Positions 7,600 to 26,818 of a DNA stretch of 64,000 nucleotides are shown piece by piece. How positions within the stretch are numbered: the stretch's first letter is position 1; each line of letters starts with the position of its first letter. This DNA is from an uncultured Bacteroidota bacterium (lineage in GTDB: Bacteria; Bacteroidota; Bacteroidia; AKYH767-A; OLB10), in contig CAINEC010000007.1 of the NCBI GenBank assembly GCA_903847585.1, forward strand, positions 8,112 to 72,111, written 5' to 3'. Position numbers and translations under genes: made by a program. The notes beneath the pieces are model-generated. The model was given only the letters and a program-made list of their open reading frames with translations. It had not been told where the DNA came from and ran no database searches.

Positions 7600-9479
7600 G
7601 GTTTACAAATGGTATTAGTAAGCATTGCGTTTCTGAATTCTTGTAAGTAGGCTTTTAAAAGCAATTCTTCTTTATTGAATTTTATTTTATTATTTACCAA
7701 GTTATTCTTTAGTAAACTATCGTTCGATAAATCGTAAACACCAGTAGTTTTCTCACCATCAAACTGCACTAATTTTTTATCACTGATAAGTTGCCAGATG
7801 CCATTACTGTAATTCATGTTAAACGAATTTGTAGCATTAATTGGATTTCCAAATGCACTGAACTTACCTGAGTAATGCAGCATTTTTAAAGTGGTAGGTA
7901 AAATGTCGGTTTGTTGCGTAATGCCCTCGTAATTGCCTTTTAATTTTAACGCAGGACAGAAATAAATAATCGGAATAGCAAATTGACCTGCCGAATTCGT
8001 ATAGTAGTCGCCGTTAGAAGGCCCCGTATGATCAGCAACGATGATAAACAGGGTATTGTTAAACCATTTTTTTGTTGAGGCATTTTTGAAAAACAATTCA
8101 AGCGCATAGTCGGCATAGCGTACGCTTTCGTGATATTTTTCTTTTCCTTTCGGGAATTTATTTTTGAATTTAGCAGGTATTACATAAGGGTCGTGAGAAG
8201 AAAGTGAAAAGAAGGCGCAGTGAAATGGTTCTTTCATATCGCTAACTTTTTCATTCATGAAATTCAAAAACGAATCATCATAAATTCCCCATCGTCCGTC
8301 ATCATCTTCTGCTTTACCTTTGTATTCATTCTTCCCAAAGTATTTTTGATATCCAGCTACCTTACTGAAATTATCAAATCCCATCGTGCCGTTATGCCCG
8401 CCATGAAAGAAGGCAGTGCTATAACCCGAATTGCCAAGTATCGACGCAAATGAATTTATTCGGTTCACGTTATAGGCTCCCGTAATAAATGGTTCATCGG
8501 TTAAATGAGGTATCGAACTTAATATTGCTGGAATTCCTTCTATAGAGCGTTTTCCATTGGCAAAAGCATTGGTGCAAATCAGACTTTCTTTTGCTAATGA
8601 ATCAAGAAATGGAGTGTAGGTTTCTCCATTCGTAAAGCTTCCTATTAAATGTTTTGAAAAGCTTTCCATTACTAATACAACAACATTTAGTTTTTGAAAT
8701 GGTATGCTATCACTATAAGTTTTTTCGTAATTGAAAATATCCTTTGCTTGCTGATCATCTAAATATTTTACTGATGGAATGGGGTCATCTCTCCACGATT
8801 TTAAAATGGTAAATGGAGTATTTAAAATTAGTGGGACTTCATTCGGATTAACACCTGTGATGGCATTTTGAATACTAATTGGTCGCATTTGTAATCCACC
8901 TCTTATCCCAATAAAGGATGTTCCAATTATTAAAATATAAATGATTAATCGAAGTAAGATGGAAGGCTCAGCTAATTGCTTCGTTTTTTTGTAGCGCTGA
9001 TTGATTTTTTTAATCATCACCATGGAAACAACAATCAGAATGATTAATACTAAAAGTAAATACCAATAGTTAAGTAGGTAGTTGCCAAGATTATTATTGA
9101 CATCGTCGCCTAAGCTTATCAAACTAAAAAAATCAGCGGTAGTTCTTTTGCCTGTATATTCAAACCACGCTGTATCGATTAAATTTAGAAGAGCGCTAAT
9201 TCCAATTACTAATATTAAATATCCATCGGCAACGGTCCTCCAGAATTTATTAGTGTAAATCTTTAATGGGGCAGCTTCCACAAGTAAAACCGGCGACATT
9301 AATAAACAGATAGCACTAATGTCGAAGCGCAAACCGTAAATGAAATCAAGTAGTAAGCTATTTCCGCCCGTTTGAATATAGTTCAAATAAAACAGCAATC
9401 GGAGTGATGAATAAATGAACAATAGTAATGCAAGCTTCATTAGCAGCGCTTTGTATTGTTGGTAACCGACTTTATTCAT
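7596..9479 (-). CDS. LTA-synthase-family sulfatase-fold transferase (phosphoglycerol/phosphoethanolamine transferase-like)
   Basis: N-terminal 5-TM region plus an extracytoplasmic alkaline-phosphatase/sulfatase domain (VVLVMESFS, FHGGHNGTMGFD, ADHTGP). Confidence 0.8.
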   Translation of the reverse strand: MNKVGYQQYKALLMKLALLLFIYSSLRLLFYLNYIQTGGNSLLLDFIYGLRFDISAICLLMSPVLLVEAAPLKIYTNKFWRTVADGYLILVIGISALLNLIDTAWFEYTGKRTTADFFSLISLGDDVNNNLGNYLLNYWYLLLVLIILIVVSMVMIKKINQRYKKTKQLAEPSILLRLIIYILIIGTSFIGIRGGLQMRPISIQNAITGVNPNEVPLILNTPFTILKSWRDDPIPSVKYLDDQQAKDIFNYEKTYSDSIPFQKLNVVVLVMESFSKHLIGSFTNGETYTPFLDSLAKESLICTNAFANGKRSIEGIPAILSSIPHLTDEPFITGAYNVNRINSFASILGNSGYSTAFFHGGHNGTMGFDNFSKVAGYQKYFGKNEYKGKAEDDDGRWGIYDDSFLNFMNEKVSDMKEPFHCAFFSLSSHDPYVIPAKFKNKFPKGKEKYHESVRYADYALELFFKNASTKKWFNNTLFIIVADHTGPSNGDYYTNSAGQFAIPIIYFCPALKLKGNYEGITQQTDILPTTLKMLHYSGKFSAFGNPINATNSFNMNYSNGIWQLISDKKLVQFDGEKTTGVYDLSNDSLLKNNLVNNKIKFNKEELLLKAYLQEFRNAMLTNTICKP

Positions 9480-9564
9480 GACGCAAATTTAGTCAGTATA
9501 ACCGAACTATTTTAAAATAGCTCCTTGTTATCCTCGGAAATCTTAATTTTGAAAAAAAATAAGA

Positions 9565-9993
9565 ATGAAAGCGCAAGATATTATTAATCATTTAGGCTTA
9601 ATTGAACATCCCGAAGGTGGATATTACAAGGAAACATACCGAAGTGAAACGGAAGGAGATTTTGAAGGGTTTGAAGGTAAAAGAAATCTTGGGACGGCTA
9701 TTTATTTTCTGATGCTCGGCGGACAATCAACTTTACCTCATCGTATTAAGAGTGATGAGCTATGGTTTTATCAATACGGATCTTCTTGTGAAATCGTTGA
9801 AATTGATGATGATGGTGTTGAGCGCATTATCCGATTAGGCTCTGATTTAGCCAATGGTGAAGTGTTGCAGCATGTAGTGAAAGCAGGGCTTTGGTTTTAT
9901 TCTCGTGTAAAGGCTGAAAATGATTTTTGCCTTGCCGCTTGTCATGTTAATCCTGGGTTTGATTTTCAAGATTTTGAAATAAAATCCAATTAA
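9565..9993 (+). CDS. Cupin-fold protein (DUF985-like)
   Basis: LIEHPEGGYYKETYRS N-terminus and GFDFQDFE C-terminus, typical of DUF985 cupins. Confidence 0.7.
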   Translation: MKAQDIINHLGLIEHPEGGYYKETYRSETEGDFEGFEGKRNLGTAIYFLMLGGQSTLPHRIKSDELWFYQYGSSCEIVEIDDDGVERIIRLGSDLANGEVLQHVVKAGLWFYSRVKAENDFCLAACHVNPGFDFQDFEIKSN

Positions 9994-13839: not shown

Positions 13840-16800
13840 TTATTTAAAACTGAAATAATTCGTTTGCTGAATTACGACAGGGTTTTTACTCCACGTTTCA
13901 ATTGAGTTTCTATGTCGGAAAACGATATAGTACGAATTACCTAACAATGTTGCAGGTATGGTACTCGTTGAATTTCCGGTTGTATCAAGCGTTGTTGTAA
14001 CGGTATGCACTAACGCAAATGGACTAATAGCTTCGTGTAATTCAATTCGTATGGTATCAGACTCATTTGCTGATGAAACAGCATTTAATGTTCCTCCATT
14101 ATTATAAAAGCCTTCAATATATGCGGCCACATTCAGTGTTAAGAAATTAGTAATGGTAATCGTTCCTGAGCTAGCTGCTCCGCAAGGAGTAACCACACTC
14201 AATGGTCCTGATGTAGCTCCCGCAGGAATAGTGGCTGTGATAGAAGTAGGACTATTAATCGTGTAATTACTTATCGTTCCTCCATTAATAGAAACACTAC
14301 TTGTATTTGCAAGATTAGTCCCTGTAATAGTAATTGTTCCACCTACAGGAATTGTGGTAGGTGTAATGGAAGTTATAGTTGGAGAGTTGGTAATCGATAC
14401 ATTTATGCTGTTGGATAATTTAGTACAGTTGCTTCCTGCATATGGGAAGGAAATCGACCAGTTTTGAATTCTACCGGTATCTATAGCCGCTCTATCAAAA
14501 GCAACTAACGACCAATTACCATTCGGATTTATTTTCCCATTTCCTAATGATGCAAATGTTGTTGCTGATGTTGCGTTAGTACATCCCGTAACAGTGAACG
14601 TTGCATTCCATGGTTTAAATAATCCTGTATAAGGCGCTCCTGCGGTTCCCAAAATAGCTGTACCCGAATCAGCAAAAATTGTGTTGGTGAAATTATCACC
14701 ACTGTTATTAGTATTTCCTGTCTGATCGCTTAATCCGATTCTTGTTCCATCAGGTGCTTGCAAATAAATATCTAAGTCGCCTACCCATGTATGTGTGATG
14801 TTCATCTTTACATAGATACCACTTGACCTGATTGTTCCGTTATATCCACTTACACTAATAGTATTTGTTGCAGCAGTACATGAGTTATCTGTAATGAATG
14901 TTGTTGATGTAGAATTAAATGTTTGTGCACCAATAGGAGTAATGGAAGCTACTACATCATAACTTCCTGTTGTTGTGGCAAGATAAGTATTACCTGTCGC
15001 ACCACTGATGTTATTCCCATTCAATCGCCATTGGTAATTGTAACCAGGTTGAGCAGTAAAACTTAATTGAACTCCTTGATTACTGCAAGAAGTTGTTGAA
15101 CCACTCGCCGCTATAACAGGTGTTATTGGAGCACTAGACACATTAACGGATAAACTTGCACTCGCACCATTTCCACATCCATTTACTCCTTGAACGGTAA
15201 TAGTCCCTGATTGTGCGGTATCACTAAAGTCTGTCAAAATAATATTTGTAGTATTACCACTAATAATTTGCACACCACTAGGAGTCGTCCATAAATAACT
15301 TGTAGCATTGGCAATTGTTGAGACAGAATAGTTAATATTTTTATCGCCCTGGCAAAGCGCAATTGTTCCTGTTATACTTCCAGGTGTTAGCGGTAGTGCA
15401 TTAACAGTAACTGCATAATTCGAAGAGGCTGGTCCATTGCCACATATATTACTTGTAGAAACACTAATATTTCCACTGATCGCATTGGCTGCTATAGTAC
15501 AAGTTATTGCGTTTGTATTTGCTCCAGTTGTAATTGTAAATCCTGTTGGCAACGACCAATTGTAAGTAGTAGCATTGGCAACTGCAGTGCAAGTGTAACT
15601 AACATTTGTTTGACCTTGGCAAATTGTTGTCGGTCCTGAAATTATTCCTGATGTAGTAATTGAATTTTGAATAGAAATGTTTGCGCCATTATCAGTCCCA
15701 ATGATGGATGGATTAGAGGCAATCACCCTAATACGATAACCATTTCCAGCGGGGGTGTTAGATGGGATCGTGCAACTGATGCTTCCAGTATTCGCTGTTG
15801 ATGATAAAGACCCAATGCTAATTGGAGAAGCAAAACTTCCCGCTGCATTTGATAACTGCACAGTAAAATTATTTCCTGTGTTCGCAGGTCCATCGCCACT
15901 ATAGCTGACATTTAATGTAGATCCACTGCAATACGTGGTTGTTGTAAGTGCTGAAGTATTTAACGTAGAAAGCACAGTTGATCCTGCTGCAATTGTAAAG
16001 TTGGTGTTAGAGATGTCGAAGAAAATATTTCCAACACTTTGAACTTTTATTCTTGCTGTGGTGGATAAGTAAGCTGGAACAGTTATCGTTTCTGTACCAT
16101 CATTAGGAGTTGAACTCAATATGGTGATAGGGTAGGTAAAACCTCCATCGGTTGAAAGAAGAATAGCAACATTTGCACAAGAAATAGGACTTGCTGTTGT
16201 ATTAGATACATTCCAGGTTACTAATGCTGATTGTCCTGTATTCCATGTTAAATTAGTATTTGGACTTGTTACTGCAAATGCTGTTGTTGTATTAATAACA
16301 TTGACTTTCACTGTATCTTCTGGATGCATTACACCGCCACCACCTATTCGGTTATCCCTTACCGTTATTCTGAATTTTAATGTACGCGCATAAGATGGAA
16401 GTAATTCGCCGATGGTGGTAACATTATTTACGATATCACTGATTTTTGGAAATGTTCTGCTTGTACTACTCACAGGGGAGAAAGGTCTAAAGATTGGCGC
16501 ATCACCAACTGGCGCATTCCAGTTTCCTGCAGCTCCTAGATCGAATTCTTCCCAACAATACGTTAAGGCATCTCCGTTAGCATCGCTTCCTGTTGCTGTT
16601 AGCTCAAACGGTGTTTGAAAAGGAATAGAGTAGGTAAGAGCAGTCGGTGTTACGGTAGGAGGAGTGTTTCCTGTGTTGGTTGTTGTTGGACAAGTGCTAC
16701 CGCTTCCTGTAGTAATATAAGTTGTAATCTGATCAAAGCTTTTTGTGTGAAAATAGGGAATACTATTCGGCGCTAAATCGTTGGTGGCTGTGCATATTCC

Positions 16801-17928
16801 AGCATAAGCCATAATGGTAATACCGCTTCCTGGTTCATATGCTGTAGTTGCTGTTCGGTTACCACTACATGATCCAGTTGATGCATTAAATGTATGTTGT
16901 GCACCAAATTGATGTCCCATTTCGTGTGCTACATAATCAATGTCGAAAGCATCACCAACAGGACTACCTGATCCAGTAACACCACCCGCTTTATTGGCAG
17001 TACAAGGAACACCCAAATAGGCTACTCCACCACCACCAGTACTGAATACATGTCCAATATCGTAATTAGCTGAACCAATAATATTATTACAGGTTGTAAT
17101 ATTTTCCCCAAGCATTGTTGAACCATTCGTATTTGTAAAAGGATCGGTGGATGCGTTTGTATAAATTAGTAAAGTGTCGTTAGGAATTAATGTAAACTTT
17201 ACTGCTAATTCATCGGAATAAACTGCATTCACACGATTAACAGAAGCCACCATACCAGCTAATGCACCTGCTTTTGTGCCTCCATAAAATGCGGCATATT
17301 CACCCGTACATGAAAGTGCTAATCGATAATTACGAAGTTGTGTTCCATGCGTTCTTTGGTTATTGGTTGTGTTATTAAATGATCGAACTTCTTTTATAAG
17401 GTCATCCGTTTCACAACTAAATCCTGTACTTCTGTTAAAGTTTTTCTTTTCATAAAGTATACAATTCTGTGTATCAAAATTGTTTAAGGGATCATAATAA
17501 AACACACCATCTTGTGAGGTGATCATTATATGAAGTCCTATAGGTGATATACTCAAAGCAAGTTTCGCACTTGGATCATTAATACCTTGACCTCTGTAAG
17601 TTTGAATTTCACTAAACACTTTATTTAAATCGGGATGCATTACGTAAACCTTCTTCACTTCGAAAACGATTTGCTTTTGATTGCTTACTGGTACATTCAA
17701 ATACAAGGTATTCTTGCTTTTGATGTTTTCGGTGGGAGCTTTTAATAGTTCATTGAAAAGCAACGAATGATTATAGGTAATTCCCAAATATTCTTGAGGG
17801 TATGCGTATCTAGCAGGAGCTGTTGCATATTGCTCATTAGTCCAAAGGGAGAAAAAGTTTGCTATTTGCGCATTTGCAAATTGACAAATTAAGAATGATA
17901 AGAATAATAGAGAAGCCCTTTTTTTCAT
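13840..17928 (-). CDS. Giant secreted metzincin (reprolysin/M12B-like) zinc metalloprotease with Ig-like repeats, proprotein-convertase P-domain and IPT/TIG domain
   Basis: Signal peptide MKKRASLLFLSFLICQFANAQ. HEMGHQFGAQH at 16894-16926. Two ~80-aa Cys-containing Ig/PKD-like repeats (ICQGQTNVSY.., LCQGDKNINY..). P-domain signature HTWVGDLDIYLQAPDG, and IPT-like ITSITPTTIPVGGTITITGTNL. Confidence 0.8.
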   Translation of the reverse strand: MKKRASLLFLSFLICQFANAQIANFFSLWTNEQYATAPARYAYPQEYLGITYNHSLLFNELLKAPTENIKSKNTLYLNVPVSNQKQIVFEVKKVYVMHPDLNKVFSEIQTYRGQGINDPSAKLALSISPIGLHIMITSQDGVFYYDPLNNFDTQNCILYEKKNFNRSTGFSCETDDLIKEVRSFNNTTNNQRTHGTQLRNYRLALSCTGEYAAFYGGTKAGALAGMVASVNRVNAVYSDELAVKFTLIPNDTLLIYTNASTDPFTNTNGSTMLGENITTCNNIIGSANYDIGHVFSTGGGGVAYLGVPCTANKAGGVTGSGSPVGDAFDIDYVAHEMGHQFGAQHTFNASTGSCSGNRTATTAYEPGSGITIMAYAGICTATNDLAPNSIPYFHTKSFDQITTYITTGSGSTCPTTTNTGNTPPTVTPTALTYSIPFQTPFELTATGSDANGDALTYCWEEFDLGAAGNWNAPVGDAPIFRPFSPVSSTSRTFPKISDIVNNVTTIGELLPSYARTLKFRITVRDNRIGGGGVMHPEDTVKVNVINTTTAFAVTSPNTNLTWNTGQSALVTWNVSNTTASPISCANVAILLSTDGGFTYPITILSSTPNDGTETITVPAYLSTTARIKVQSVGNIFFDISNTNFTIAAGSTVLSTLNTSALTTTTYCSGSTLNVSYSGDGPANTGNNFTVQLSNAAGSFASPISIGSLSSTANTGSISCTIPSNTPAGNGYRIRVIASNPSIIGTDNGANISIQNSITTSGIISGPTTICQGQTNVSYTCTAVANATTYNWSLPTGFTITTGANTNAITCTIAANAISGNISVSTSNICGNGPASSNYAVTVNALPLTPGSITGTIALCQGDKNINYSVSTIANATSYLWTTPSGVQIISGNTTNIILTDFSDTAQSGTITVQGVNGCGNGASASLSVNVSSAPITPVIAASGSTTSCSNQGVQLSFTAQPGYNYQWRLNGNNISGATGNTYLATTTGSYDVVASITPIGAQTFNSTSTTFITDNSCTAATNTISVSGYNGTIRSSGIYVKMNITHTWVGDLDIYLQAPDGTRIGLSDQTGNTNNSGDNFTNTIFADSGTAILGTAGAPYTGLFKPWNATFTVTGCTNATSATTFASLGNGKINPNGNWSLVAFDRAAIDTGRIQNWSISFPYAGSNCTKLSNSINVSITNSPTITSITPTTIPVGGTITITGTNLANTSSVSINGGTISNYTINSPTSITATIPAGATSGPLSVVTPCGAASSGTITITNFLTLNVAAYIEGFYNNGGTLNAVSSANESDTIRIELHEAISPFALVHTVTTTLDTTGNSTSTIPATLLGNSYYIVFRHRNSIETWSKNPVVIQQTNYFSFK

Positions 17929-17975
17929 AACTGAAATATTACATGATGCAATTTATAAAAAACGGGGGGAATAAA

Positions 17976-18008
17976 AAAACCTGTAGTGAATACTACAGGT
18001 TTTTTTAT
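17976..18008 (-). terminator. Intrinsic terminator after the 1511-aa cargo gene
   Basis: aaaaaaacctgtagt-gaat-actacaggttttttt: perfect 8-bp stem flanked by A- and T-runs, 18 nt downstream of the stop at 18026. Confidence 0.8.
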
Positions 18009-18025
18009 TTCAGGTATTAATTCAA

Positions 18026-21000
18026 TTACTTGGTAACAACCATTCTTCTTGTGATTGTTTTTCCGTTGTAATTTAACGTATACATATACATTCCTTCAGA
18101 AAGTGTTGCAGTGTTGAAGTATACTGTGTGTAAACCAGCACCTTCGTTTCCATCAACAAGTACTGCGATTGTTTGTCCTAATAAATCAGTAACTGTTATG
18201 TTAACTTGACCAAATTCAGGGATAACAAAATCGATAGCTGTATTTGTCATAGAAGGGTTAGGATAGTTCTGGCTTAATCCGAAGTTATCAGTTGCAATTT
18301 CATTTACACCTAATGGAGTACATAATCCTAAGTCAGTGATACAAACATCATCAATTACCCATCCTTCGTCTACTGCTGAATAATCAGAAGCAAACTTCCA
18401 ACGAACAATCATTTGTGTATTTGCACCAGGATCTAATGTCTTTTCAGTCTTGAACCAGCTTGTTCTGTTTCCTGTAAATCCGAATACTGTTGGGTTGCTA
18501 GGATTTAAAGCTGTTACATAAGTGTAGTTAGGACTTGCACCATATAATTGAATATTTGGTGTTCCTGCATAATCTATGTTGTTCCAAGATTGACCGTAGT
18601 CAACAGAGTAATCTACACCACCACCATCTGCACCATACTCCATTTTGTAACGGTTCCAGAATTCTAATTTATAGCAGTGACCAGCTTCAACACGAACTAA
18701 TGCAGAGAATAATCCAGCTGAATCGATGTTAGTATAGTTACCACTTAAATCAGTTGCCCATGCTTTTGCTCCACTATGTGTTCCACTTAATGTAGGTTTT
18801 GTTGGGTTACCCATTTGCCATGATTCATCGTAAGCATAAGAGTCAGAGTTTGCAGTTACCCATTGACTTCCACTTTCAAAGTCAGTACAGAAAGGTAATT
18901 GACTTGTTGTTACTGAATCGAATACTAATACATTGATACAAACAGTATCGTCTAATTGATAATTGTCTGTTTGGTTATTTGGGTCATACGTATAAACACA
19001 AACTTCATGATATCCTGGAACAGCAATCCAATTAGTGCTGAATGCATGTAATTTAGAGCTATCAGTAGCTAAACCACCAATTGCGCTATAGTCTACAAAG
19101 TCAGAACTAGCAATGTTACCATCAATTGATAATACTGCCATGTGGTTATTGATTGTAAATACACCGTTGTTCTTAATGTTTCCAGAGAAATTAACTGGTT
19201 GACCAGGGAATAATAACTGATTTTGAACTGTAGTATTTACAACTGTTGGAGTTACAGATAATGGAATTGGTACAAATAATTCAAAGTTGTCAACTGAAAC
19301 TCCGTCCATTGTTCCAAAGTTATTGGCGAACACAAAACGGAACTGAATTAAGTTCGGAGATGTACCACCGTTAGTCGCATTTTCTAAGTTTTTGATTTCA
19401 CTCTTAATCCAACCACCTGAAATATCATCCCAGATATCTACATTGTTATACCAGTTAGTTGCATCAGTTGTTAATGCTGGTTGTAATCTTGTCCAGGTGT
19501 TATTGTTATTTAAGCAGTACTCAATGTAGAAATCAGGGCCGAACGTATTCATGTCACGATTCTGCATGAAACGTAATGTAGCGCCTGCTGCATTTGTCAA
19601 ATCGAAATAAGGTGTGTACAAATAAGCTTGAGTTGCACCAGCTACTGCACTTGTTAAGTTCATATCCCAACATGTGATAGGAGAGAATGCACCTGTAGTT
19701 ACGCCGAAGTTTGGAGTTCCAAATTCCCAAGCATTACCTGCTGAAGCTAAAGGATCAGCTGCTGGAGCCCAACCGATGTTTCCATTTTCGAAATTATCTG
19801 TGTAGTAGTTAGTATAAGTCGGCGTAATAGTCGGCTGACCATAGATAATTGTAGAAGCGGTATCATTTAAGTTATTTACATCTCCAGGCAATTCTGTCCA
19901 TGCAGTTACTGTTACAGGTCCCGCAACCATGTTAAATGGAGGTAAGTTGATATCTAAATTTGAACATGGTGCTAATGAACCTGTCCAAACAAATGATGCT
20001 GATGCACCACTTGATGTTACATAAGAGATAGGAATTGATGTTACTGTTTGCGTAGCACTTGCATTTGATAAGGTAGCAATCAATGAAACTGGTGTTCCTG
20101 CTGGAGCATTTGTAATACCACCACCTAGAACTGTAATTCCAACATCGTTACCATTTGTACCAGTTACACAGAAATCATCGATTGTAGCACCACCATTTAA
20201 TGTAATAATACCATCAGATGAGAAAGTGAAACGGAATTGAACAGCAGTTGAACTTCCTAATACATTATTTAAACAACATAATTTATAGGAAGGGAAGAAC
20301 CATCCTGAAGCTGGACCAGACCATGCATCCAACGCTGTAAAGTTAGGTTGTAATGGAATGTTCTCATTATACCAGTCTTTAGCACAATTAGGATCATTAG
20401 GAATATAATTCCAAGTAACACCACCGTCATTTGTGTATTCTAAAATAACACCATCCCATCCTTTTTCTGCATCATAAAACATAGCGAATTTTAATTCTCC
20501 CGTTGTGATGTTACTCATATCTAAGTAAGGAGTGTATAGGTAAGTTAAGTCATTGTTGCCGTAAGCTGCATTTAAGTTTACGTCCCATGCGTTAGAGCCT
20601 GAGTAAGCTGATGCAGGATTACCAGTTCCTGGCGTTCCTAATTCCCAAACGTCAGCTGCATTTTGGTTAGGCGCTACGTTAGCAGACCAACCTTGGTTAC
20701 CACTTTCGAAATCATCACATAAAGGCGCTGTTAATGTAGGGATACCAACTAAACTTACACAAACACTGTCATTTGTATGGTCGCAATCACCCGCTAAGTC
20801 AGTCCACATACAAACTGTAAATGCGCCTGATTGAGCAGTAATAGAATTTAAGATATAATTAATTTGAGCACCTGGAGTTAATGGACCTGCAATTTGAGTC
20901 GTTACTGGCGCACCATTATTCACAGTATATGTAAAGTCAAAGTTCGATTGAGGTGCAGTACCATAGTTCTCTAAAGTAAGATCGATATTTACTGGCTGAC

Positions 21001-22561
21001 CAGCAGGGATACCTGTTCCATTTGAAGGAGAGTTAAGGGCGTTAATACCAACATCACCTGCACAAGGAATAGTAACACAGAAATCGTCAATCCAAAAACC
21101 TAAACGCTGAACAGAAATATCAGATGTAAATTTAAAACGGAACTGAATGGTTGGTTGTCCCATTAATCCAGTTACAGTACCAAGTTTATAGCTTGATTTG
21201 TTCCATACAGTTGTGTTTGGAACACCTGTCCAGGCATCAATTGTCCCCCCTGAAATTGTTCCATTATACCAATTTAATCCATTAGGGTCATTTTGCACCC
21301 CGATTGTTGTCCATGTAGGTGAAGCAACTGTAGGGTCAGATGAAAACTGTAAAACAACTCCATCATAATTGTTCTCAAGATTTGTTACTTGCCAGAAAGT
21401 CATGTTCGCTAAAGAAACACCTGCGAAGTCCCAGATAGGAGTTGAAACATAAGATTCACTATTATCTTGATAAGTTCCACTTAATGGAAAACCTAATACA
21501 TTGCTTCCTCCGTGTGGAGTAACAATAGACGTATTACCAATTTCCCATGGTGTACCCGCTACTGTATTGAATCCCCACAATTGTTGTGAACCAGAAACGT
21601 TTTCAAAGTCATCACAAAAAGGAATACTTGCACCATCACTAACAATAAAGCAAGATGTATCTGAAGAACCAATATTGAAGCAACCATCGTAAGCATCAAT
21701 GTACCAACAAACAGTGTCTCCAATGTTTGCAGGGAATAACTGTCCATACCAAGTTGTGTCTGGGTAGAACAAGAACATACCACCAGTTGATGAGTAAGGA
21801 CTACTATTTACTGAGTATAAAAGGTCTGCAAACTGAATTGGTGTAGGTGAGTTATCGTAGATATTAGCATAAACATCATAAGGACCTGTGTTATAAACTG
21901 GGCCATTCCAAGTTGGGAATCCCGGAGTGTTTACGATTGTTGGAGGAATCAATTCACATGGTGATGCAATCACTTCTAAATCATCTAATAACCAACCATA
22001 TCTTCCTGCCATACCGTTGTTACTGCTAAAGTCTACCAATGTAAAACGAACGATTACGTTGTTTGCATTAGCAGCCAAAACTGAAATGTCAAAACTTTCG
22101 TTTTGCCACCAGTTTGCAGCAGGTGCTGTTGGTGTACCCGGCGCCCATATTCCGTAAGAAAGCTCGCTGTAACGATTTCCTTGGTTGATAAAATCGGCAC
22201 TGCCTAGGTAGGTACTGTTAGTTCCAGTAACCTGCGTCCAAGTAGCCCCATTGTCGATAGAAACTTCAATTTTAGCAGTATCTGTAAATTCAATTTTACA
22301 AATTTGCTTAAAGTTTAACACAACATAGTTGTTTCCTGCAGTCGAAAATGAGTTGCTGGTTAATGTAACTGTCTGACCATTTCCATATTGCCCTCTGTAT
22401 GAGTTAGGAGCACTAGTAGAATAGTTAGCATCGATGTTCCAGCCAGGATTTCCTGCTGAGGTTAGACCATAAGGACCTGGTCCGTCGAAGTTCTCTGTGA
22501 ACTGCGCCTTTAACATCGTTACATTAACGAATAACAAAAGCGTAAGTATCAGTCGTTTCAT
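18026..22561 (-). CDS. Giant T9SS cargo protein with five MAM-like/choice-of-anchor modules alternating with CARDB-like Ig domains
   Basis: Signal peptide MKRLILTLLLFVNVTMLKAQ at the internal ATG 22561. Five repeats of (C)DDFE..G...W....W(E/Q)xG(T/N)P. C-terminal 80 aa (18026-18268) match a T9SS type-A sorting domain (NYPNPS...GMYMYTL...RRMVVTK). Confidence 0.8.
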   Translation of the reverse strand: MKRLILTLLLFVNVTMLKAQFTENFDGPGPYGLTSAGNPGWNIDANYSTSAPNSYRGQYGNGQTVTLTSNSFSTAGNNYVVLNFKQICKIEFTDTAKIEVSIDNGATWTQVTGTNSTYLGSADFINQGNRYSELSYGIWAPGTPTAPAANWWQNESFDISVLAANANNVIVRFTLVDFSSNNGMAGRYGWLLDDLEVIASPCELIPPTIVNTPGFPTWNGPVYNTGPYDVYANIYDNSPTPIQFADLLYSVNSSPYSSTGGMFLFYPDTTWYGQLFPANIGDTVCWYIDAYDGCFNIGSSDTSCFIVSDGASIPFCDDFENVSGSQQLWGFNTVAGTPWEIGNTSIVTPHGGSNVLGFPLSGTYQDNSESYVSTPIWDFAGVSLANMTFWQVTNLENNYDGVVLQFSSDPTVASPTWTTIGVQNDPNGLNWYNGTISGGTIDAWTGVPNTTVWNKSSYKLGTVTGLMGQPTIQFRFKFTSDISVQRLGFWIDDFCVTIPCAGDVGINALNSPSNGTGIPAGQPVNIDLTLENYGTAPQSNFDFTYTVNNGAPVTTQIAGPLTPGAQINYILNSITAQSGAFTVCMWTDLAGDCDHTNDSVCVSLVGIPTLTAPLCDDFESGNQGWSANVAPNQNAADVWELGTPGTGNPASAYSGSNAWDVNLNAAYGNNDLTYLYTPYLDMSNITTGELKFAMFYDAEKGWDGVILEYTNDGGVTWNYIPNDPNCAKDWYNENIPLQPNFTALDAWSGPASGWFFPSYKLCCLNNVLGSSTAVQFRFTFSSDGIITLNGGATIDDFCVTGTNGNDVGITVLGGGITNAPAGTPVSLIATLSNASATQTVTSIPISYVTSSGASASFVWTGSLAPCSNLDINLPPFNMVAGPVTVTAWTELPGDVNNLNDTASTIIYGQPTITPTYTNYYTDNFENGNIGWAPAADPLASAGNAWEFGTPNFGVTTGAFSPITCWDMNLTSAVAGATQAYLYTPYFDLTNAAGATLRFMQNRDMNTFGPDFYIEYCLNNNNTWTRLQPALTTDATNWYNNVDIWDDISGGWIKSEIKNLENATNGGTSPNLIQFRFVFANNFGTMDGVSVDNFELFVPIPLSVTPTVVNTTVQNQLLFPGQPVNFSGNIKNNGVFTINNHMAVLSIDGNIASSDFVDYSAIGGLATDSSKLHAFSTNWIAVPGYHEVCVYTYDPNNQTDNYQLDDTVCINVLVFDSVTTSQLPFCTDFESGSQWVTANSDSYAYDESWQMGNPTKPTLSGTHSGAKAWATDLSGNYTNIDSAGLFSALVRVEAGHCYKLEFWNRYKMEYGADGGGVDYSVDYGQSWNNIDYAGTPNIQLYGASPNYTYVTALNPSNPTVFGFTGNRTSWFKTEKTLDPGANTQMIVRWKFASDYSAVDEGWVIDDVCITDLGLCTPLGVNEIATDNFGLSQNYPNPSMTNTAIDFVIPEFGQVNITVTDLLGQTIAVLVDGNEGAGLHTVYFNTATLSEGMYMYTLNYNGKTITRRMVVTK

Positions 22562-22617
22562 AAGTAAGTATTTGGTTTTTTTCAGTTGGTTTTTTATTCT
22601 CAGATTTTGTGAATTTT

Positions 22618-22625
22618 CAAAAATA
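22618..22625 (-). promoter_or_regulatory. Candidate Bacteroidota -7 promoter box (TATTTTTG) for the cargo gene
   Basis: The minus strand reads TATTTTTG (TAnnTTTG consensus) about 55 nt upstream of ATG 22561. It lies inside the track ORF's N-terminal extension, which argues against that extension. No clear -33 TTTG seen. Confidence 0.35.
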
Positions 22626-22721
22626 GAAAAATTCTGATATAACACAGCATATCCTGCTCGATTTTTAGCACGAATTTTCAACAATTGTTTTACTTCTGTT
22701 ATGTCAATATCTTTTGCAATA

Positions 22722-24018: not shown

Positions 24019-25035
24019 ATGAAACTTGTCAGTATTAATACACCTAAAGGACCTGCTGTAGCATTTTATGTTAACGGAAAGATTTATCCTTATTCCGAAT
24101 TAGCAGCTATTATGGGCGTTTCAGCTCCATTTTCAATGAAAGAATTATTGGATGGTGAAGAGAAATCGATGGATGAAGCACGTAAAATGGAATTGAATAT
24201 CCTGGAAGGGAAAATAGATTATGTTGGTTTAGAATGGAACGCTGTTAATATGTTGGCTCCGGTTCCTCAGCCTACATCTTGTCGTGATGGTTATGCTTTC
24301 CGTCAGCATGTGGCCGCAGCTCGCCGTAATCGTGGAGTGGAGATGATTCCAGAGTTTGATGAATACCCGATTTTTTATTTTACTAACCATAATGCTATTC
24401 AAGGACCTGGAGATATTTATTGTATGCCGGACCATTTCCGTCAGTTAGATTTTGAATTGGAAGCTGCCGTTGTACTAGGTAAACGTGGAAGAAATGTAAA
24501 AGCCAAAGACGCAGATCAATATATTGCCGGCTATATGATTATGAATGATATGTCAGCGCGACTTTTACAAATGGAAGAGATGAAATTAAATCTCGGACCC
24601 GCTAAAGGAAAAGATTTTTCAACTGTTATTGGTCCTTATATGGTAACTCCAGATGAACTTGAAGCTTTTAAAGTGGCTGCTAAAAAAGATCACGAAGGGA
24701 ATAATTATAACTTGGCAATGAAATGCTGGGTGAATGGAGTGCAGGTTAGTGAAGGGAATATGGCTGATATGGATTGGACCTTTGCTGAAATCATTGAGCG
24801 CTGTGCCTATGGTGCGGATATTTTTCCGGGTGATGTGATTGGATCTGGAACTGTTGGTACAGGCTGTTTCCTTGAATTAAATGGAACAGGTAAATTAAAT
24901 GATCCAAATTATCCGGTTCAATGGCTTCAAGAAGGCGATGTTGTGGAAATGTCGATAGATGGATTAGGCTGCCTCCAAAACACAATCAAAAAAGAAAATT
25001 CCGATTTTTCTATTCTCAATCTAAAGAAGAAATAG
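24019..25035 (+). CDS. Fumarylacetoacetate hydrolase family protein
   Basis: FAH-fold motifs (DFELEAAVVLGK, MNDMSAR, GDVIGSGTVG). Divergent from hmgA, consistent with Tyr/Phe catabolism. Confidence 0.85.
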   Translation: MKLVSINTPKGPAVAFYVNGKIYPYSELAAIMGVSAPFSMKELLDGEEKSMDEARKMELNILEGKIDYVGLEWNAVNMLAPVPQPTSCRDGYAFRQHVAAARRNRGVEMIPEFDEYPIFYFTNHNAIQGPGDIYCMPDHFRQLDFELEAAVVLGKRGRNVKAKDADQYIAGYMIMNDMSARLLQMEEMKLNLGPAKGKDFSTVIGPYMVTPDELEAFKVAAKKDHEGNNYNLAMKCWVNGVQVSEGNMADMDWTFAEIIERCAYGADIFPGDVIGSGTVGTGCFLELNGTGKLNDPNYPVQWLQEGDVVEMSIDGLGCLQNTIKKENSDFSILNLKKK

Positions 25036-25045
25036 CATGAAACAG

Positions 25046-25080
25046 AAAAGTCCAGACATTGTCTGGACTTTTGTTTTTTT
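25046..25080 (+). terminator. Intrinsic terminator of the FAH-family gene
   Basis: gtccagac-att-gtctggac (8-bp perfect stem) followed by ttttgttttttt. Confidence 0.85.
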
Positions 25081-25098
25081 TAGACTTGGCCTTTAAAA

Positions 25099-25412
25099 TA
25101 TCAGAGGGGAGACAGGCCCCCCTCGTGATATCAACCTAAAAACCTAACCATTTCTTTTACATTAACTCTAGTTTAGTCAGCACGAAGTAGCCTTACGGGG
25201 CTACTTCATAACTGACAATCAACCTGAAAAGCTAACCATGCTTTTGATTAACTGATTTTTTAAATTTTAAGCTGTCTATTGAGAGTAGTCTTACGGGACT
25301 ACTCTCCAGACATTTAACCTAAAACACCAAAACCATTTAATCTTGCCTTACGGGGCAAAATGTTTTTATTGTTATGTGGAACCTTAAAAATCATAAACCT
25401 TACGGGGTTTAT
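25099..25412 (+). ncRNA. Candidate structured RNA: tandem array of five stem-loops with shared UUACGG apex and AACCUAAAA-type tails (no family recognised)
   Basis: Hairpins at 25099-25130, 25176-25216, 25274-25311, 25343-25358 and 25393-25412. The last four are capped by c(c/t)ttacggg(g/a). Tails: tcaacctaaaaacctaacca (25131-25150), tcaacctgaaaagctaacca (25219-25238), taacctaaaacaccaaaacca (25315-25335). The strand call rests on the U.G closing pair and a U-run after hairpin 4. Confidence 0.45.
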
Positions 25413-25574
25413 AAATTTTAAATCCAAATTATATCATGTTTTCAGAACGAATGATTCAATTGCTGAATCTGAGTTGTATAACGGAAGGTCGTTTTCTTTG
25501 GTTACATTTTTTTGAAAGTTTTTTTTATTTCAATTAATGTTACCCTAAAATCAAAATCAACCAACACTATTTTG

Positions 25575-25582
25575 TAATTTTG
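25575..25582 (+). promoter_or_regulatory. Candidate -7 box (TAATTTTG) for ribBA
   Basis: Matches TAnnTTTG 19 nt upstream of ATG 25601. No properly spaced -33 TTTG found. Confidence 0.3.
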
Positions 25583-25600
25583 CAGCGACAAAAAATAACC

Positions 25601-26818
25601 ATGGGAAGCTTTAAATTAAATACAATCGCCGAGGCATTGCAAGATCTGCGGGAGGGTAAGATTATTATTGTTGTTGATGATGAGGATCGTGAAAACGAAG
25701 GTGATTTCGTGATAGCCTCTCAAAGTGTTACTCCTGAAGTAGTAAATTTTATGGCTACACATGGCAAAGGACTAATATGCGTATCAATATCAGAATCACG
25801 CTGTGAGGAGTTGCAATTACCAATGATGGTCAATACAAACACAGCCTCTCATGAAACAGCATTTACAGTTTCAGTTGATCTATTGGGTAATGGCTGTACA
25901 ACTGGTATTTCTGCATCCGATCGTGCTAAAACTATTCAGGCAATGATTGATGTAAACACTAAGCCTTCTGACCTTGGTCGACCAGGACATATATTCCCGC
26001 TGAAAGCGAAAACTGGTGGTGTGCTTAGAAGAGCAGGTCACACAGAGGCTTCTATGGACCTTGCATCATTAGCTGGATTTTATCCTTCAGGAACGATCGT
26101 TGAAATTATGAATGAAGATGGCTCAATGGCTCGTCTTCCTCAATTAATTGAGATTGCAGAGCGTTTCAGTATGAAAATAATTTCTATTGAAGCACTTATT
26201 AAATATCGTTTAGAGCATGAAACATTAATTCATAGAAATATTGAAGTGGAAATGCCAACTGAGTATGGCGATTTTAAACTGATTGCTTACACTCAATCGA
26301 ACAACGGTATGGAACATCTTGCCTTAGTGAAAGGTGAGTGGACAATTGACGAGCCTGTGCTTGTGCGTGTGCATTCATCTTGCTTAACTGGTGATATCTT
26401 TGGATCATGTCGTTGTGATTGTGGTCCACAATTGCATCAAGCTATGAAGAAGATAGAAGCTGAAGGTAAAGGTGCAATCGTTTATATGAATCAAGAAGGT
26501 AGAGGAATTGGTCTACTTAATAAATTGAAAGCATATAAACTTCAAGAAGAAGGATTAGATACCGTTGAAGCTAATTTGCAACTCGGATTTAAAATGGATG
26601 AGCGAGATTATGGTGTTGGTGCGCAAATTATCCGCGACTTAGGTATCGCTAAAATGAAATTAATGTCGAATAATCCAACTAAACGTGCAGGATTAATTGG
26701 CTATGGATTAGAAATATTAGAACGAGTGCCAATTGAAATAGAGTCGAATGAACATAACGAGTTTTATCTTAAAACGAAAAGAGATAAAATGGGACATTTA
26801 ATAAAATCAAAAGATTAA
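25601..26818 (+). CDS. ribBA: Bifunctional 3,4-dihydroxy-2-butanone-4-phosphate synthase / GTP cyclohydrolase II
   Basis: [11 protein letters not shown] and GHTEAS (DHBP synthase half). [22 protein letters not shown] zinc site and NQEGRGIGL (GCH II half). ATG at 25601 preferred over the TTG at 25580. Confidence 0.95.

Follow-up and report, generated by a model that had tools for sequence, protein, structure and literature searches.

Comparative sequence analysis of a 64-kb stretch of DNA from an uncultured Bacteroidota bacterium (contig CAINEC010000007.1, positions 8,112 to 72,111; hereafter the window) revealed that the tandem hairpin array located between a fumarylacetoacetate-hydrolase-family gene (FAH) and ribBA is very probably a genuine conserved structured element. 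Its functional strand is likely the minus strand, which is antisense to both FAH and ribBA. As a joint claim, which we put forward tentatively and rate as plausible but somewhat short of probable, the array would be a single-copy, clade-specific minus-strand RNA gene whose product serves as a multivalent titration or scaffold platform.

The array occupies a 565-nt intergenic region between FAH (24019-25035, plus strand) and ribBA (25601-26818, plus strand), and all five hairpins reported in the initial annotation of this DNA are present at the positions given there (sense denotes the ribBA strand throughout):

25099-25130: hairpin H1, with one bulged G.
25184-25207 (core): hairpin H2, perfect, with the CTTACGGG apex, extended by GTCAG (25176-25180) and CTGAC (25212-25216).
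25281-25306 (core): hairpin H3, perfect, with the CTTACGGG apex, extended by GTCT (25274-25277) and AGAC (25308-25311).
25343-25358, minus strand: H4, a short apex-only hairpin, uugCC-UUACGG-GGcaa in the sense direction.
25393-25412: hairpin H5, perfect, with the invariant apex.

The occurrence of the octamer CTTACGGG at the apex of four perfect inverted repeats, as originally described, was confirmed. The window, with a G+C content of 35.6%, contains five copies against 0.40 expected, a number reached in none of 100 shuffles, and four of them lie in the array, whereas the fifth (60179, minus strand) belongs to a run of codons for a lipoprotein signal peptide and forms no hairpin. When the window was scanned for perfect stems of 7 bp or more with loops of 3-8 nt, H2, H3 and H5 were the only TTACGG-loop hairpins returned, the 5-bp stem of H4 falling under this cutoff. 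The near-identity of two 20-nt tails was likewise reproduced (18 of 20 positions, with 0.01 such matches expected). The description of the stems as unrelated holds for H4 and H5, whose sequences differ, but not for H2 and H3, which are duplicates (paralogues) with 90% identity over a 20-nt core and one compensatory change from C-G to U-A.

To define the distribution of the array, one genome from each of 185,579 species was scanned with the stem-free pattern CCTTACGGGG-N5-30-CTGAC-N1-2-TCAACC. Among the 54 matching stretches, about 48 are true loci and six are isolated chance matches in unrelated phyla, mostly in G+C-rich genomes (by our own rough arithmetic, about 14 would be expected by chance). 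The true loci all belong to Bacteroidia/Bacteroidota metagenome-assembled genomes (MAGs), with coarse taxonomic labels and protein names no finer than 'Bacteroidota/Bacteroidia bacterium', and every genome contains a single locus, in which the pattern matches 1-3 times over ~250 nt. In the ~8 kb of sequence read per genome, tblastn with the neighbours of the window array placed all true arrays 200-600 nt upstream of ribBA and in the same relative orientation; the gene on the other side is FAH in approximately half of the loci and a GT4-like glycosyltransferase in the remainder. Contigs with RibBA 78-93% identical to that of the window keep the order hgmA-FAH-[520-610 nt]-ribBA together with the array, which was thus found to be conserved in synteny. 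Across all hosts RibBA identity to the window ranges from ~70 to 99%. Syntenic relatives at 78-99% retain the array, and most of their hairpins have an unaltered CCTTACGGGG decamer on stems that change. Two European Nucleotide Archive (ENA) contigs with an identical RibBA also have an identical intergenic region and are hence uninformative; the near-identical ENA metagenome contigs come from an uncultured freshwater organism, and an exact-protein look-up with FAH gave no match. Neither the decamer nor a covariance-model match was detected in 80 more distant ribBA loci (≤75% RibBA identity, metagenome scan), and these loci without the apex mark the phylogenetic boundary of the array. Around the arrays, 407 kb of flanking sequence contain four copies of the octamer CTTACGGG, none of them at a hairpin apex. 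Since there is one locus per genome and these flanks have no capped hairpins, the array is a locus-specific and clade-specific element, not a dispersed repeat. Contigs labelled as 'Bifidobacterium' MAGs (L098/L116, CALQEU020000002.1; L135, CAZPCA010000103.1) have a Bacteroidota-type hgmA-FAH-array-ribBA locus and 37-50% G+C; these contigs are probably mis-binned or mislabelled.

Comparison of the loci resolved a repeated module of ~65-70 nt, in which an internal loop separates the outer helix GUCAG/CUGAC from an inner helix of variable sequence; the apex is invariant, and a single-stranded segment of 25 nt is conserved as well. In the sense direction, the order is GTCAG, 2-5 further nt, the 5' arm of the inner helix (7-10 nt), CC-TTACGG-GG, the 3' arm of the inner helix, 3-5 nt, CTGAC and A(A)TCAACCT(A/G)AAA..ACCA. 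On the minus strand, the module begins with a G/U-rich segment (..UUUUAGGUUGAUU), followed by GUCAG, the internal loop, a variable helix of 8-10 bp, the CC CCGUAA GG apex, the returning helix arm, the internal loop and a 3'-terminal CUGAC. The tails that had been noted after H1, H2 and H3 are real; on the minus strand they are G/U-rich segments that precede the hairpins. On that strand the segments contain no C and are predicted to be largely unpaired; they fall into three types, each conserved in sequence across species. The arrays have about 2-6 apex hairpins, most commonly 3-4, made up of two to four full modules and short apex-only hairpins such as H4, and the 10-nt apex is unchanged on long modules, on segment-less short hairpins and on terminal terminator hairpins.

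Pair counts and a covariance model were obtained from an alignment of 57 unique modules, in which 97.9% of the cells are standard pairs. Eight of the nine inner-helix pairs changed on both sides, with 103 compensatory cells, a result matched by none of 500 shuffles, and in a control with the partner slid by 1-3 columns pairing fell to 19-43%. RNAalifold, unaided, predicted the same module structure. The helices are thus shown to be kept by compensatory change, and the apex and linear segments to be held constant. The idea that a conserved loop on covarying stems reflects selection for pairing, first raised from the single sequence, consequently holds across the ~48 species, with strong covariation in the 57 modules and a module model that matches H2 and H3. 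In the window, the modules are as follows:

25094..25154, minus strand: H1, terminal divergent module without the canonical apex (covariance-model match at 25098-25154, 26.6 bits, E 0.004).
25174..25242, minus strand: H2 module, canonical, with the outer helix GUCAG/CUGAC (74.8 bits, E 8e-14).
25272..25334, minus strand: H3 module, with G/U-rich segment, outer helix GUCU/AGAC, inner helix and apex (50.6 bits, E 1.8e-8).
25384..25421, minus strand: H5, degenerate third module that has lost the outer helix (weak match, 16.4 bits).

The match to the H3 module is on the minus strand. The H2 tail, CTGACAATCAACCTGAAAAGCTAACC, is almost unchanged among relatives, the H5 module is the orthologue of the relatives' module with the tail ATCAACCTAAAACCAAAC, and H4, itself a weak match (15.8 bits), keeps its position between modules in relatives. 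Judging by its covariance-model score, H1 is a predicted divergent module whose apex has been lost. In L103, L116 and L117, recent tandem duplication of entire modules has produced 5-7 apex hairpins, and the near-identical copies have the same wobble pair in common. In six other loci (L093, L106, L119, L123, L128 and L143), the distal module is replaced by a different conserved element, GAGCGCTTCTCGTCTC in the sense direction (antisense GAGACGAGAAGCGCUC), directly upstream of the first module.

These data make it highly improbable that the array is a functionless selfish or neutral repeat of a REP/BIME-, MITE- or terminator-cluster-like kind. Such an origin would account for the tandem duplication, for a copy number of about 2-6 among species with recent expansions in L103, L116 and L117, and for the terminator-like form of H1 and some distal hairpins. 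It is contradicted by the single locus per genome across ~48 species, by the lack of further copies in the 64 kb of the window and in the 407 kb flanking the arrays, by invariant apex and linear motifs on compensated stems across hosts with ~70-99% RibBA identity, and by the lack of matches to the module pattern in viral contigs. REP/BIME elements with RAYT are likewise clustered, short, imperfect intergenic palindromes, and GTAG is found within the H2 and H3 stems; REPs, however, exist in tens to hundreds of dispersed copies with conserved stems and often alternating orientation, whereas the array has one locus per genome, covarying stems, a conserved loop and a single orientation. No RAYT or transposase was found among its neighbours, which are hgmA, FAH or the glycosyltransferase, ribBA, a phosphoglucomutase-family gene and an aminotransferase. 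A dispersed REP/MITE-like repeat, the alternative named in the initial annotation, is accordingly not what the window and the flanking DNA of the arrays contain, neither of which has other capped hairpins.

The selection rules for the formal module set tolerated antisense wobble, and for this reason the strand argument rests on strand-symmetric counts, in which any single mismatch between flanking Watson-Crick (WC) pairs was allowed. On the sense strand, the inner helices of 68 unique hairpins comprise 540 WC, 17 A.C and 3 G.U pairs, the outer helices have 18 A.C versus 2 G.U, and a further hairpin, P1 (described below), has 134 WC, 4 A.C and 1 G.U, giving a total of 39 A.C versus 6 G.U non-WC pairs. 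A sense A.C corresponds to a G.U on the other strand, and the minus strand therefore has 39 wobble pairs versus 6 mismatches (binomial p ~1e-6 for the 40 inner- and outer-helix cases, these events being partly non-independent and found in many different stems). The asymmetry arises through G-to-A and T-to-C changes alike, as in GGATAGCC/GGCTACCC and GCCAG/CTGAC, so that a single mutational bias cannot explain it. Modules reach lower minimum free energies when folded as the antisense strand (Wilcoxon p 0.018), and the array region of the window folds to -136.1 kcal/mol on the minus strand (z -9.65) versus -104.3 on the plus strand (z -6.77). At least five U in 10 nt follow the distal structure in the antisense direction in 20 of 51 unique loci, and the proximal structure in the sense direction in 4 of 51; in the glycosyltransferase-linked subclade, the distal hairpin is a G+C-rich, terminator-like stem carrying the same apex.

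Some observations count against the minus strand. G/U-rich strands fold better in silico regardless of function, the plus-strand apex could adopt the UACG tetraloop with U.G closure, which is known to be stable, the minus-strand CCGUAA corresponds to no known motif, and tolerance of G.T fits a single-stranded DNA hairpin on the minus strand equally well. The tetraloop had been the ground for assigning the array to the plus strand in the initial annotation, an assignment that is outweighed by the wobble/mismatch asymmetry, the promoter-like motif and the terminator position, all of which favour the minus strand. Comparative wobble-pair counts can thus overturn a strand assigned from a single sequence.

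A plus-strand RNA, either a small RNA (sRNA), independent or derived from the FAH 3' untranslated region (UTR), or a long ribBA leader, whose UACG-type loops and C/A-rich tails would titrate a protein, is accordingly improbable. Besides the U.G closure of the apex, it would explain the co-orientation of the array with both flanking genes and the few P1 variants that extend by G.U on the plus strand. A weak plus-strand T-run does follow H4, as had been noted, but it is not conserved in relatives, and the last plus-strand hairpin has no U-run. The 39 A.C pairs among 45 non-canonical ones run counter to folding on this strand, and in several relatives the first module starts ~15 nt past the upstream stop codon, which leaves no room for a sense-strand promoter. 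Moreover, the promoter of ribBA itself lies on the downstream side of the array (see below).

Signals that would delimit a minus-strand transcription unit, divergent from ribBA and convergent with FAH, were located on both sides of the modules:

25497..25505, minus strand: -35-like block GTAACCAAA, preceded by an A-tract, with GTAACC at 25505-25500; (G/T)AACCTT in relatives.
25477..25483, minus strand: -10-like block CGTTATA; CGTT(T/A)AA in relatives.
25453..25469, minus strand: hairpin P1 (GATTCA/TGAATC), putative 5' end; at the same position in relatives, with wholly different stems.
25439..25449, minus strand: conserved motif CGUUCUGAAAA (sense TTTTCAGAACG), between P1 and the modules.
25092..25470, minus strand: putative non-coding RNA of ~380 nt, from just past the -10-like block to the U-run after H1.

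The most conserved blocks between the array and the ribBA promoter are, in the antisense direction, the A-tract, (G/T)AACCTT, a 15-16-nt spacer that is fixed in length and free in sequence, and CGTT(T/A)AA. The two-block motif is present in antisense in 29 of 43 unique loci versus one in sense in the same segments. Promoters recognised by extracytoplasmic function (ECF) sigma factors characteristically combine a -35 containing AAC with a -10 containing CGT, about 16-17 nt apart, and by this analogy the motif may be an ECF-sigma-like promoter. A hairpin 'P2', initially considered between TTAAACG and AAGGTT, was reinterpreted as the spacer of this promoter-like motif, its length being fixed and its sequence variable. 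P1 was scored by an anchored script, as MAFFT followed by RNAalifold gave no consensus owing to misalignment. Downstream of P1, CGUUCU (minus strand, 25449-25444) is conserved; its sense counterpart AGAACG does not vary within the FAH-linked subclade, and the other subclade retains AAAGAAC. At the opposite end, the minus-strand reading of H1 gives a G+C-rich stem-loop with UGAUAUUUUA after it, an intrinsic-terminator-like end that was also recovered by a terminator scan of this strand (25124-25104, 8 pairs, tail TGATATTTTA). An intrinsic-terminator-like form is seen in H1 and in the distal hairpin of 20 of 51 loci, and the internal modules do not fit it. No credible open reading frame (ORF) was found on either strand of the array; an ATG after module B that in three relatives reads through the short hairpin as xALRG was dismissed as a small ORF, since the window's clade does not conserve it. 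A second AACC-N16-CGTT match in the window (9648-9671) was treated as a chance occurrence, because it lies inside a short minus-strand ORF stretch (read by eye) with no ECF sigma domain nearby, none having been detected by Pfam in the ten neighbouring ORFs.

The same signals bear on whether the array acts as DNA, either as single-strand hairpins bound by an HUH-type or other protein or through CTTAC blocks that are transcription-factor sites of ribBA. DNA hairpins tolerate G.T mismatches too, a hairpin with an adjoining conserved single-stranded sequence resembles HUH nuclease substrates, and CTTAC is also part of TCTTACA direct repeats near the ribBA promoter. Nevertheless, we consider this distinctly improbable: there is one fixed locus per genome with no nearby transposase or Rep gene and no dispersed copies, promoter-like and terminator-like signals frame a transcription unit, and covarying stems are unnecessary for binding to double-stranded DNA. 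The TCTTACA repeats themselves, carried by many relatives, are two direct copies ~11-12 bp apart between the promoter-like motif of the RNA and the ribBA promoter (in L093 at ~2785-2810, sense AAATCTTACAGGAATTCTTACAT, and at equivalent positions elsewhere), with TTGTAAGAAA in the opposite orientation at this site in subclade 2. They share CTTAC with the hairpin apex and look like a response-regulator or transcription-factor site.

Two elements of the flanking genes complete this region:

25046..25072, strand not assigned: FAH terminator, a perfect 12-bp hairpin between an A-run and a T-run, bidirectional.
25575..25582, plus strand: Bacteroidetes-type -7 box of ribBA, TAATTTTG, 19 nt before the ATG at 25601.

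In nearly all loci of the family, the ribBA start is preceded, at a distance of 15-75 nt, by a perfect TAnnTTTG. From this predicted promoter, ribBA transcription starts downstream of the array, which is consequently outside the corresponding ribBA 5' UTR. A ribBA leader or riboswitch was rejected on the same ground, as the -7 box sits between the array and the ATG. The flavin mononucleotide (FMN) riboswitch, ordinarily the RNA element ahead of rib genes, is similarly found upstream of a riboflavin biosynthesis gene, but the array folds on the opposite strand, upstream of the ribBA promoter, and consists of repeated modules instead of a single aptamer; no match to RF00050 was obtained in the window or in 20 related loci. 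Rfam also detected no FMN riboswitch at ribBA of the array clade and at 10 more distant Bacteroidota loci. Further out, hgmA lies upstream on the minus strand, and the phosphoglucomutase-family gene and the aminotransferase lie downstream.

A minus-strand RNA might alternatively act by base pairing, with the G/U-rich 25-nt segment or the loop as a seed beside a protective hairpin, and possibly with its processing to a set of similar sRNAs directed at mRNA regions rich in C and A, in the manner of GcvB, CcsR and LhrC. We regard this as a serious possibility, although on the unlikely side. It agrees with the cross-species sequence conservation of each of the three segment types and with their C-free, predicted largely unpaired state on the folded strand. 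In the window, the H2 tail AAAAGCTAACCATG (25227-25240) resembles the ribBA start region AAAAAATAACCATG (25590-25603), and the minus-strand RNA would therefore be complementary to the ribBA initiation region. For this region, the one target covered, the complementarity of one G/U-rich segment is restricted to the species group of the window (z -3.4 to -5.1); the family as a whole does not conserve it (43 loci, median z 0.08). A pure seed would, in addition, leave the 10 invariant apex nucleotides unexplained, including those on short and terminator hairpins that have no segment.

Instead, under the multivalent-platform proposal, the invariance of the apex on long modules, short hairpins and terminal terminator hairpins points to a ligand that reads the loop, and the presence of several loops per transcript points to multivalent binding. 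Transcription would start at the ECF-sigma-like motif (A-tract, (G/T)AACCTT, N15-16, CGTTTAA); the RNA would begin with hairpin P1 and end at the distal hairpin and its U-run, H1 in the window. Each transcript would present the invariant CCGUAA hexaloop 2-6 times and one linear motif 2-4 times, and would titrate or assemble a loop-specific partner, probably a protein. The linkage to ribBA may reflect a shared regulatory region.

Several considerations weigh against this proposal. The ~380-nt RNA, its ends and its strand are all deduced from sequence, and the promoter assignment is by analogy only: the minimal two-block motif occurs about twice per 64 kb by chance, and no canonical Bacteroidetes TAnnTTTG box was found on the minus strand. 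The loop-specific partner is a postulated protein, the loop having no known protein-binding consensus (no GGA, no ANTAR A1/G4), and the ribBA linkage rests on few independent rearrangements.

Searches against known families returned no counterpart of the array. With Rfam 15 at the gathering threshold, there were no matches in the whole window, and a tRNA was the sole match in 20 related loci; at E up to 10, the region 24900-25750 gave sub-threshold matches only, mostly driven by the FAH terminator. The array itself matched nothing at either setting, in agreement with the earlier impression that it belongs to no known RNA family. A literature search with the exact loop sequences found no relevant paper, and a keyword search found only known motif catalogues already in Rfam. 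Within Rfam and the literature searched, the family is thus undescribed; its design is like that of known modular loop-displaying regulatory RNAs, with which it shares no motif, partner or lineage.

One of the nearest likenesses is to the protein-sponge sRNAs CsrB/RsmZ/RsmY of Gammaproteobacteria, which also carry many short invariant loop motifs per transcript on variable stems and are modular, duplication-prone, single-copy genes with their own promoter and terminator (predicted, in the case of the array). The loops differ, being CCGUAA (or UUACGG) and not A(N)GGA, and the GGA motif expected from the CsrB/RsmZ comparison in the initial annotation is absent from them; the array also adds a 25-nt linear motif per module, resides in a Bacteroidia host and has no Rfam match. 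Tandem homologous hairpin units with identical loops are also formed by the Rhodobacter RNAs CcsR1-4 ('cuckoo') and by Listeria LhrC1-5, which alternative sigma factors or stress induce and whose loops serve as seeds. Their loops, however, are C-rich and resemble an anti-Shine-Dalgarno (SD) sequence (CCUCCUCCC / UCCC), whereas the array loop is not SD-complementary; their units are separate or processed sRNAs, and the CcsR context is a DUF1127 gene. To our knowledge, SD-led initiation is largely absent from the phylum of the array. The ECF-sigma-dependent sRNAs MicA, RybB and MicL of E. coli share with the array the AAC...CGT two-block form, the standalone gene and the intrinsic terminator (again predicted for the array), but the array RNA would be much longer and modular, with a promoter assigned from conservation only. 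Three other classes were rejected. A CRISPR array would have near-identical direct repeats with unique spacers, whereas here the stems differ and conservation lies in the inter-hairpin segments, and no cas genes were present in the loci examined. The ANTAR-regulated dual hairpin has two hexaloops that begin with A and carry G as the fourth nucleotide, which is true of neither UUACGG nor CCGUAA. A type III toxin-antitoxin system, in which tandem ToxI-like RNA repeats directly precede a toxin endoribonuclease gene, was dismissed, both flanking genes being metabolic enzymes.

A broader interpretation is that the array represents a novel class of multivalent regulatory RNAs of Bacteroidia driven by a stress sigma factor; their CCGUAA loops and G/U linkers would capture a loop-specific protein, as a functional analogue of Csr/Rsm, and the site at ribBA would tie them to riboflavin/redox physiology. 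We regard this as speculative and rather doubtful. As far as we know, Bacteroidota largely lack the Hfq, ProQ and CsrA hubs at the centre of most bacterial sRNA biology, and Bacteroidia are generally thought to be without Hfq and are not known to use a Csr/Rsm system. Post-transcriptional regulation in Bacteroidota beyond gut Bacteroides is hardly explored, and the invariant repeated loop could serve as a bait to look for a novel RNA-binding partner in Bacteroidia that are abundant in fresh water and activated sludge. With an alignment and a covariance model of 57 unique modules, the family is ready for Rfam-type curation.

Among minor observations, a two-apex pattern gave 15 unrelated matches in viral contigs (tandem repeats, one CRISPR-like repeat and terminators), which were discarded. 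In one of the viral sequences (L154, IMGVR_UViG_2775506835_000006), a CRISPR-like array at 9402-9746 has the decamer within its repeat, GTTTCCGTCCCCTTACGGGGCGTGGATTTAGAC, but bears no relation to the family. At 25212-25218 and 25250-25256 lie two copies of TAACTGA, a heptamer that forms head-to-tail intergenic repeats in members of the Beggiatoaceae, in Cyanobacteria and in a few Bacteroidetes (PMC4679880). It was set aside, since its two copies are not arranged head-to-tail and are not conserved in the family. Elsewhere in the window, a perfect hairpin with an 18-bp stem, a GAAT loop and A- and T-runs on its flanks (17970-18009) separates two giant minus-strand ORFs (13840-17928 and 18026-22684) and is probably a strong bidirectional terminator.

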